Shown in pieces: positions 4,523-5,584 of a stretch of 64,000 bases of DNA. Source of the stretch: Vicinamibacterales bacterium (GTDB lineage: Bacteria; Acidobacteriota; Vicinamibacteria; Vicinamibacterales; UBA8438); contig OZ219745.1 in the NCBI GenBank assembly GCA_964291605.2, positions 5,001,934 through 5,065,933 of the forward strand. The letters are read 5' to 3'. The notes beneath the pieces were generated by a model that was given only the letters and a program-made list of their open reading frames with translations, ran no database searches and had not been told where the DNA came from. The first letter of the stretch is position 1; each line of letters opens with the position of its first letter. Made by a program: the position numbers and the translations under genes.

Positions 4523-5584
4523 TCATCGCGTCGCCCTCCAGCCGCGCAGCGCGAGCACGACCGCGAGAACCGCGAGGCCGAGCGGCGGAACCGCCGGCAC
4601 TCCGGTACCGATGGTGCTTGTGTCGACCGTCCGGCGGAAACCGGCCAGCACGGTGCCCGATGTATCTTGCAGCGCGTTCGTTTCCGGCCGCGCGTACCGC
4701 AGGGTCACCCGCTCGCCACCCCGAATCGCTTCGCCAAGGTCGAGGTACAACGTCGTTGCGTCGCCGAACCTCACGCTGCTGACCGTAGCTGACGTGCCGG
4801 ACAAGGTGAACGCGGACGTTGCCGGAAGGATGGACGTATCCATCGCTCTACGGAACCCGACGGTGATGGTCGTGCCGGTGATATCCGCGGCGGCGCCCGT
4901 TGTCGGCTCGGGTGTCGGGTCGATGCTGGCTTTCGCATAGCCGTAGATGGCGACCAGAACTCGGACGTCGTTAATAGCTGTCCACGGACCGGTGCTATCG
5001 TAATCCCGATGGAGGCTATCGTCCCCGATGTTCCCCTCCCCGGCCGTGTCAGAATCGTCGTCGAGACTGTACGTTTTTGCCGTATGGATATTTCTGTTCC
5101 CGGGAACGCTCACGTCTACGACCACGAAATACGTCGCGTCGGCATCCAGGTCGACGCCTTGGCCGGAGGCCGTGAACCTGTTCTCTTCATTGTCGACCAA
5201 CTCGGACGGGTTTGTCAGCGTGCCCAGGATGCTGCCCGGCGATCCGCCCGAGTTCGAGTGGATGCTCACACTGTAGGCCGGCGCCGTCCCTCCCGGGTTA
5301 TGGACCCTGAGATCGATACCTACCTCGGTCAACTTGTAGCCGTCGGGGTTGTCGCTCATGGTGAACGCCTGGGCGTGGTCTTCGATCCAAGACCTAGTGA
5401 AACTGCGCGGCTCATCGATGTTGCCGGTCAGCTTGGTGCTCGACTGCGCCCACGCCCCCGGGGAAGCGAGCAGCACGGCCACAGTCGACCAGGCCGCAAC
5501 CGCACAATGCCACCCGCTACTTCGCTGGCTGGCTGGCTGGCTGGCTGGCTGGCTGGCTGGCTGGCTGGGCAATATCCATGCCAC
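4523..5584 (-). CDS. Secreted surface protein copy B: signal peptide, N-terminal beta-rich domain, SwmB/Ig-like repeat domain and a PEP-CTERM-like (VPxxxP) C-terminal anchor
   Basis: Uninterrupted 353-aa ORF. The signal peptide is AAWSTVAVLLASPGAWAQ. The C-terminus VPAVPPLGLAVLAVVLALRGWRATR reads as motif, hydrophobic helix and basic tail. The segment ITGTTITVGF...VTLRYARPETNALQDTSGTVLAGF looks like a SwmB-type repeat. The in-frame start is GTG at 5584, and the nearby ATG at 5579 is out of frame. Confidence 0.7.
   Translation of the reverse strand: MAWILPSQPASQPASQPASQRSSGWHCAVAAWSTVAVLLASPGAWAQSSTKLTGNIDEPRSFTRSWIEDHAQAFTMSDNPDGYKLTEVGIDLRVHNPGGTAPAYSVSIHSNSGGSPGSILGTLTNPSELVDNEENRFTASGQGVDLDADATYFVVVDVSVPGNRNIHTAKTYSLDDDSDTAGEGNIGDDSLHRDYDSTGPWTAINDVRVLVAIYGYAKASIDPTPEPTTGAAADITGTTITVGFRRAMDTSILPATSAFTLSGTSATVSSVRFGDATTLYLDLGEAIRGGERVTLRYARPETNALQDTSGTVLAGFRRTVDTSTIGTGVPAVPPLGLAVLAVVLALRGWRATR
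5524..5567. repeat. Perfect tetranucleotide microsatellite (GCTG)11, which is (CCAG)11 on the coding strand
   Basis: Counted directly. It sits inside the 5' coding region of 4523..5584, between the start codon and the signal peptide, and encodes QPASQPASQPASQ. Confidence 0.95.

Follow-up and report, generated by a model that had tools for sequence, protein, structure and literature searches.

In a 64-kb stretch of DNA from an uncultured Vicinamibacterales lineage (hereafter the window), two tandemly duplicated genes for a predicted surface protein, which we call copy A and copy B, carry a CCAG tetranucleotide tract between their translation initiation region and their signal peptide. The four tract-bearing copies (two paralogs, each in two 99.4%-identical assemblies) bring three different upstream reading phases into frame with the mature protein. 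On the evidence of the sequence, we consider this a credible candidate contingency locus, in which gain or loss of repeat units would change the start codon that serves the protein. That the tract works as an SSR translational switch in these genes is, in our judgement, an evenly balanced proposition.

In copy B the first-pass annotation had described 11 perfect CCAG units between the initiation region and the signal peptide, and TRF (an array at 5524..5568 with period 4, 100% perfect, 11.2 copies) and direct reading agree on this. TRF also returned a second period-4 array, an imperfect one, at 3711..3770, where the tract of copy A is interrupted (Table 1). The longest period-4 run observed has 11.25 units, compared with a maximum of 4.75 in 200 Markov-1 simulations of the window, whose base composition is 69% G+C. 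We found no further mono-, di-, tetra-, penta-, hepta- or octanucleotide tract above modest thresholds in the 64-kb window, so its only frame-shifting repeats share one position in two paralogs. The two copies had been reported to differ by 8 nt in the tract. Between their shared ATG and the h-region of the signal peptide we found a difference of 26 nt instead, to which the tract contributes 13 nt, an in-frame duplication in copy A 12 nt and a deletion in copy B 1 nt.

Tetranucleotide tracts of at least 5-6 perfect units are commonly taken as long enough to be prone to slippage. Copy B has 11 such units, and copy A has 8 + 4 in the window or 9 in the second assembly, L001. The rate of slipped-strand mispairing in perfect tetranucleotide tracts climbs with length, at least as De Bolle et al. 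(2000) are cited in a recent review (PMC11868660). Translation of the CCAG tract gives a cyclic Pro-Ala-Ser-Gln peptide in all three frames with zero stop codons, so a change in unit number would alter only the phase downstream.

Table 1 Positions of the main features of copies A and B in the window, with the phase observed in each tract-bearing copy.
Feature	Position	Strand	Basis or remark
Copy A gene, split into three ORFs in the window; frameshifts near 3363/3372, 3090 and 2717	2606..3817	minus	
Copy A signal-peptide 12-nt in-frame tandem duplication (AAWS-AAWS)	3662..3685	minus	
Copy A tract, (CCAG)8-CCAAG-(CCAG)4	3718..3770	minus	TRF and direct reading
Copy A tract in assembly L001, (CCAG)9-CCAACCAACC			13 nt shorter than in the window, plus substitutions
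Copy A initiation region: SD GGGAGG, ancestral ATG, GTG 3821 (phase y), ATG 3817 (phase x, in frame)	3813..3833	minus	
Copy B mature protein and stop: choice-of-anchor R domain, SWM repeat (Ig-like), C-terminal hydrophobic helix and basic tail	4523..5446	minus	
Copy B signal-peptide h- and c-regions, AAWSTVAVLLASPGAWA, putative cleavage site between AWA and Q	5447..5497	minus	inspection; nearly invariant across the family
Copy B 1-nt deletion between tract and h-region, CGGCTTGCGG to CGGTTGCGG	5494..5502	minus	
Copy B TAG closing phase x right after the 11-unit tract	5517..5519	minus	
Copy B tract, (CCAG)11, all units perfect	5525..5568	minus	TRF and direct reading
Copy B GTG 5584 (phase z, without SD, now in frame with the mature protein) and ATG 5579 (phase x, now out of frame)	5577..5584	minus	
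Copy B SD-proximal starts: TTG 5619 (phase y), GTG 5615 (phase x, ancestral frame)	5611..5619	minus	
Copy B SD-like sequence, GGAGAGGTAAGGA	5621..5633	minus	upstream of phase-x and phase-y starts
Divergent intergenic region between copy B and the GAF-PAS-HisKA-receiver-OmpR hybrid regulator gene (5963..8320)	5585..5962		
Window copy A			observed phase x
L001 copy A			observed phase y
Copy B, both assemblies			observed phase z

Start codons in three phases lie upstream of the tract. Phase x is that of the ancestral start near a Shine-Dalgarno (SD) site. For phase y the alternative start is GTG 3821 in copy A and TTG 5619 in copy B; it is 2-4 nt away from that of phase x and just as near to the SD. 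Starts in these two phases are 5-10 nt from a strong SD, whereas the phase-z start, GTG 5584 or its copy A homologue, stands 16 nt before the tract and has a best SD match of 3/5 to GGAGG. The start of the neighbouring HK-RR gene, read directly, is also preceded by an AAGGAG-type SD. In copy B the ancestral ATG, two codons upstream of GTG 5615, has mutated to ATT, so phase x falls to that GTG. In copy A the ancestral ATG has a TGA after it in the window, and phase x falls to ATG 3817; the ATG homologous to ATG 5579 is in frame, as had been claimed. Also borne out was the claim that ATG 5579 of copy B reads through the tract into a TAG: from it we read MDIAQPASQPASQPASQPAK, ending at 5519..5517. 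GTG 5584 is in frame with the mature protein, but it is not the sole in-frame start that it had been taken for, as TTG 5572 lies in the same frame, and SD-proximal starts exist in both remaining phases as well.

Between the tract and the h-region, neither copy has an in-frame start. It had been stated that no ATG, GTG or TTG of any kind lies past the tract before the signal peptide. This was too strong, since copy B has GTG or TTG codons at -31, -25, -23 and -17 from the h-region anchor (GTG 5482), but every one of them is out of frame and the conclusion that translation must cross the tract stands. We varied the number of tract units of copy B in silico, recording which upstream phase joins the mature frame. 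Phase x was joined at 10 or 13 units, phase z at 11 or 14 and phase y at 9 or 12, and each count from 8 to 14 left an open path from some ATG, GTG or TTG to the mature protein. With some start codon available upstream in each phase, a graded switch with three states appears likelier than a clean ON/OFF one. Copy B would now be in the weak phase, from which the loss of one unit would bring back the ancestral start.

L001 is an independent metagenome contig from another sample, 99.4% identical to window 1..14768. A comparison of tract lengths between related genomes had been suggested as a check on switching, and its outcome was divided: copy A differs in its tract between the two assemblies, whose flanks are otherwise ~0.1% divergent, but copy B is base-for-base the same in both, 11 units included. 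When the exact products of the HK-RR and CHRD neighbours were looked up, the only contigs to come back were that of the window itself and L001; the DUF1552 product, P0002, P0005 and P0007 gave no record. Beyond these, close relatives of the copy A/B protein are rare. Two protein searches found 8 among 5.8 billion proteins, and genome and metagenome scans added only a Vicinamibacterales (Acidobacteriota) MAG, the nearest genome by the genome scan, plus distant domain relatives. P0002, P0005 and P0007 are three more paralogs on one 68-kb contig. Many of the relatives are incomplete: P0004-P0007 were called with a truncated N terminus, while frameshifts occur in P0008 and L002.

Among the relatives recovered, the tract was found in one lineage only. 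Tract-less relatives are carried by the Vicinamibacterales MAG. The tract-less relatives (L002/L003 at the syntenic locus, L004 and L008) read ...ATGGGATCTGACCCGGCCAGCGAGGTAGCG... at the homologous site, with a single CCAG. The expansion is thus specific to the lineage of the window, where it is present in both paralogs.

The relatives also bear on how the leader is read. L002, L004 and L008 have an SD, GGGGAGG, 5 nt before an ATG, and the leader of the relatives is MCVTRIVTGRDASGMGSDPASEVAGGIVRL, followed by the h- and c-region AAWSTVAVLLASPGAWA and then Q. In alignments, leader indels outside the tract are multiples of 3 (-12 and +3 in L002, +12 in copy A) and several leader substitutions are synonymous. 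Together with the SD and ATG of the relatives, these patterns indicate that the leader is translated in phase x. In the relatives a GTG also lies in frame 24 nt ahead of the h-region anchor (L004 ~4067, L008 ~4254); translation from it would yield a canonical signal peptide of 20 aa, MRLAAWSTVAVLLASPGAWA. This short-leader GTG is CTG in copy A (3695..3693), and in copy B the 1-nt deletion has put it out of frame (5505..5503). Its loss from both copies, with no in-frame start past the tract, leaves the lineage of the window dependent on starts upstream of the repeat. On the same two changes we rejected the idea that the tract is part of a 5' UTR followed by a downstream start.

The copy B ORF (4523..5584, minus strand) encodes 353 aa, and its 319-codon mature part is intact in both assemblies, though the ancestral start is out of phase. 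Copy A is intact downstream of the tract in L001 (389 aa) but not in the window. From domain matches, a conserved signal peptide and C-terminal tail and a structural model, we predict that the product is an exported surface-type protein with a C-terminal anchor-like tail. Copy B scored 83 bits against NCBIfam NF041539 (choice-of-anchor R; cut-off 30, E = 2.2e-23, residues 69-214), and SWM_repeat (Pfam PF13753, gathering threshold 27) was matched at 32.5 bits by copy B and at 37.3 bits by a copy A fragment. The last 37 residues of copy B resemble sorting tails of the IPTL-CTERM/XrtH type, with scores below the cut-offs of IPTL_CTERM (14.8 bits vs 20.5) and midcut_by_XrtH (17.8 vs 45), and this tail is a predicted helix followed by RGWRATR. 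By inspection, the putative Sec-type signal peptide, (R)LAAWSTVAVLLASPGAWA with Q after the cleavage site, is invariant across the family. An AlphaFold model of copy B has two beta-sandwich domains and a terminal helix (pLDDT 83), for which a PDB fold search gave weak, generic jelly-roll, lectin or S-layer-like beta-sandwich matches (best E = 7e-5, TM 0.39).

In the intergenic regions, an AT-rich conserved block (e.g. AATGAAAAAAACATGAAATAGACAAAGATAGACACGAACATTTGATATGC) at ~5790..5870 and ~3925..4005 is common to both copies and the relatives, and is probably where each surface gene and the regulator gene share a promoter or operator. A sigma-70 promoter and terminator scan of 3700..6000 returned nothing upstream of copy A or copy B, and an Rfam scan of 1..10000 nothing relevant.

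We estimated dN/dS by pairwise Nei-Gojobori comparison among the three intact genes. It was 1.1-1.8 in the N-terminal choice-of-anchor R domain and below 0.5, from few substitutions, in the signal peptide and C-terminal tail. The blocks SIHSN.GG.P..LGTLTNPS, TYFVV.DV and VAIYGYAK, among others, are invariant, and variable sites of the N-terminal domain are enriched outside predicted strands (63% vs 42%, Fisher p = 0.008). This mosaic of rates and variability agrees better with a surface-exposed protein that diversifies under structural constraint than with neutral decay acting uniformly; a dN/dS near 1 is also the outcome of relaxed selection.

Both surface-protein genes are held in a tandem segmental duplication in which 2582..4106 matches 4473..5975, and copies A and B are 86% identical in DNA. 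At the junction, 4132..4402 matches 8021..8291 and 4402..4472 matches 2224..2294. There the first few and last ~90 codons of the hybrid HK-RR gene (91.5% identical) are fused to a 71-nt piece of a DUF1552 gene (98.6%), leaving a chimeric remnant ORF at 4156..4782. A 25-nt segment, TGACGCAACCCGAGGCGAAGGAAAA, at 4095..4119, present in the window and not in L001, is a duplicate of the stretch that contains the SD and start of the remnant regulator gene. Degraded fragments of HK-RR genes lie divergently upstream of the paralogs in L004 (3237..3465) and L008 (3281..3687). It appears that the surface gene travels together with its intergenic region and the 5' end of the regulator, as a cassette by which the family spreads, and that the regulator copy is deleted afterwards.

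Downstream of the tract, copy A in the window has at least three frameshifts, which are unique and not copied from copy B. The gene (window 2620..3820, L001 6699..7880) accounts for 30 of 40 inter-assembly differences, including about 8 frameshifting indels in the window copy. These are far too many for neutral decay over ~0.1% divergence; they may stem from recombination, with a divergent sequence or a pseudogene as donor, or from a consensus problem confined to this region.

Repeats of other kinds occur nearby and in the family. The SWM-repeat domain of copy A contains a 60-nt tandem duplication at 2853..2973 (2 copies, 90% identical) that adds 20 residues (SGTSATVDSVAF.DS.TLSL) absent from copy B and the other relatives. 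L008 has a perfect 15-nt x8 tandem repeat (GACCCGACACCCGAG) at 4842..4961, an in-frame VNTR that encodes (DPTPE)8 in the interdomain linker of P0003. Hexanucleotide and 18-nt repeats (CCGGAGCCCGAGCCGGAA, 2.9 perfect copies) at 12175..12294 of the window are likewise in frame, Pro/Glu-rich and situated inside a 288-aa ORF (12049..12915).

From these features we propose a model in which a CCAG microsatellite grew from one unit to 9-12 units in the Vicinamibacterales lineage of the window, inside the translated leader at the N terminus of an exported beta-sandwich protein that is anchored C-terminally and encoded by two tandem gene copies. As the unit is 4 nt long and no in-frame start lies between the tract and the signal peptide, each unit gained or lost by slipped-strand mispairing would rotate which of three upstream start contexts joins the signal peptide: the ancestral start near the SD, the alternative GTG or TTG beside it, or the GTG without an SD. 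The expected behaviour would be a heritable, reversible and stochastic three-state translational switch, with two phases probably productive and one weak or off. In copy B, 11 units would give the weak phase z, 10 or 13 the ancestral start and 12 the phase-y TTG. We infer the hypermutability of the tract, the relative strengths of the starts and an adaptive use of switching. The ON/OFF slipped-strand switching proposed by the first-pass annotation survives in part: a slippage-prone tract in a translated leader, a copy A tract that differs between assemblies and three phases among four copies all speak for switching, but a clean ON/OFF mechanism sits poorly with a copy B tract invariant at 11 units, a start in every phase, the change of ATG to ATT with a 1-nt deletion, and a copy A that is a pseudogene in the window.

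These same lesions raise the question of whether the tract is simply a neutral microsatellite. CCAG could have grown by slippage in the unselected leader of a duplication-prone, pseudogene-rich family, the phases then being frameshift lesions among others. We think this somewhat unlikely, but it stays a serious rival, given the frameshifts of copy A in the window, the frequent lesions among the relatives and dN/dS values of about 1 or more. The loss of the short-leader GTG from both copies, the two further changes that accompany the out-of-phase tract of copy B and the equal length of that tract in both assemblies would fit it as well. Less easily reconciled with neutral decay are the wholly intact mature ORF of copy B and the intact copy A of L001, the near-invariant signal peptide and C-terminal tail, the invariant core motifs, and the enrichment of variation in predicted loops. 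The tract has, moreover, been kept at the same site in both paralogs, and its 11 unbroken units point to recent or ongoing slippage and not to an old, decaying tract.

A low-complexity (PASQ)n insertion might also be tolerated in a long signal-peptide n-region, with protein made at all tract lengths and only the length of the leader varying. The identical stop-free peptide in all three frames and the open path at every unit count from 8 to 14 are compatible with such tolerance, as are the in-frame expansions elsewhere in the family (the 15-nt x8 (DPTPE) repeat in L008 and the 60-nt duplication in copy A). A 4-nt unit, however, inevitably shifts the frame, unlike those repeats, and the contrast between phase z, without an SD, and the well-placed starts of phases x and y means that output should differ strongly between phases; we consider simple tolerance improbable. 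An assembly or consensus artefact has in its favour that the region is a segmental duplication and that copy A of the window shows an unusual indel cluster relative to L001. We find it scarcely credible and rejected it, since the 11-unit tract of copy B and its flanks recur base-for-base in an independent assembly from another sample, and the tract is present in both paralogs of both assemblies.

The proposed three-state switch has close counterparts among known contingency loci. In the lic1A and lic2A genes of Haemophilus influenzae, a 4-nt repeat in the 5' coding region, combined with starts in more than one frame, produces graded high, low or off expression. Copies A and B resemble them in having a 4-nt repeat in the 5' coding region and starts in several frames. 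The lic genes code for enzymes that modify LPS and belong to an AT-rich pathogen in which such loci are numerous, whereas one gene family has the tract in the 64-kb window. The opa genes of Neisseria form a multicopy surface-protein family with conserved ends, a hypervariable middle and a frame-shifting CTCTT pentamer in the signal-peptide coding region. Conserved ends and a variable middle are also seen in the copy A/B family, but the opa pentamer lies inside the hydrophobic core and the Opa proteins are unrelated beta-barrels, while the CCAG tract lies upstream of the h-region.

The meningococcal autA and autB genes have AAGC repeats directly after the start codon, inside the signal-sequence DNA; their phase is set by unit number, most strains are OFF and many alleles are further disrupted (PMC5118866). 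The apparent weak phase of copy B and the broken copy A of the window recall this situation, at the level of mechanism only. AutA and AutB are autotransporters, whereas the proteins described here are non-homologous choice-of-anchor R/SWM beta-sandwiches with a C-terminal anchor-like tail, in which Pfam and NCBIfam gave no autotransporter domain match. Neisseria meningitidis is a host-adapted pathogen in which autA/autB switching was shown experimentally; here the organism is represented by a high-GC Acidobacteriota MAG and switching is predicted from sequence.

Mrazek et al. (2007), as cited in PMC4060949, report a strong correlation between long SSRs of 1-4 nt and dependence on a eukaryotic host, and for soil and ocean bacteria a 2025 review (PMC11868660) sees a gap in what is known of phase variation. 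The first-pass annotation had been aware of no characterised case of such switching in high-GC environmental lineages. In view of that review the remark is fair, but the novelty is modest: a Vicinamibacterales example would widen the range of SSR phase variation and not be a new kind of system. If these are merely decaying genes, the finding is ordinary. Were an uncultured Vicinamibacterales lineage, by contrast, to switch a hypervariable surface protein by means of a tetranucleotide repeat, this would be a concrete and testable case outside host-associated bacteria, and one caught near its origin, because sister genomes still carry the one-unit precursor. SSR phase variation would then extend beyond host-adapted pathogens to soil bacteria, where it might serve to escape phage or predators. 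It is possible, though we would stop short of calling it probable, that contingency loci are real in free-living soil Acidobacteriota, that this switch arose de novo from one CCAG within species-level divergence, and that it places a diversifying surface family under three-state control.
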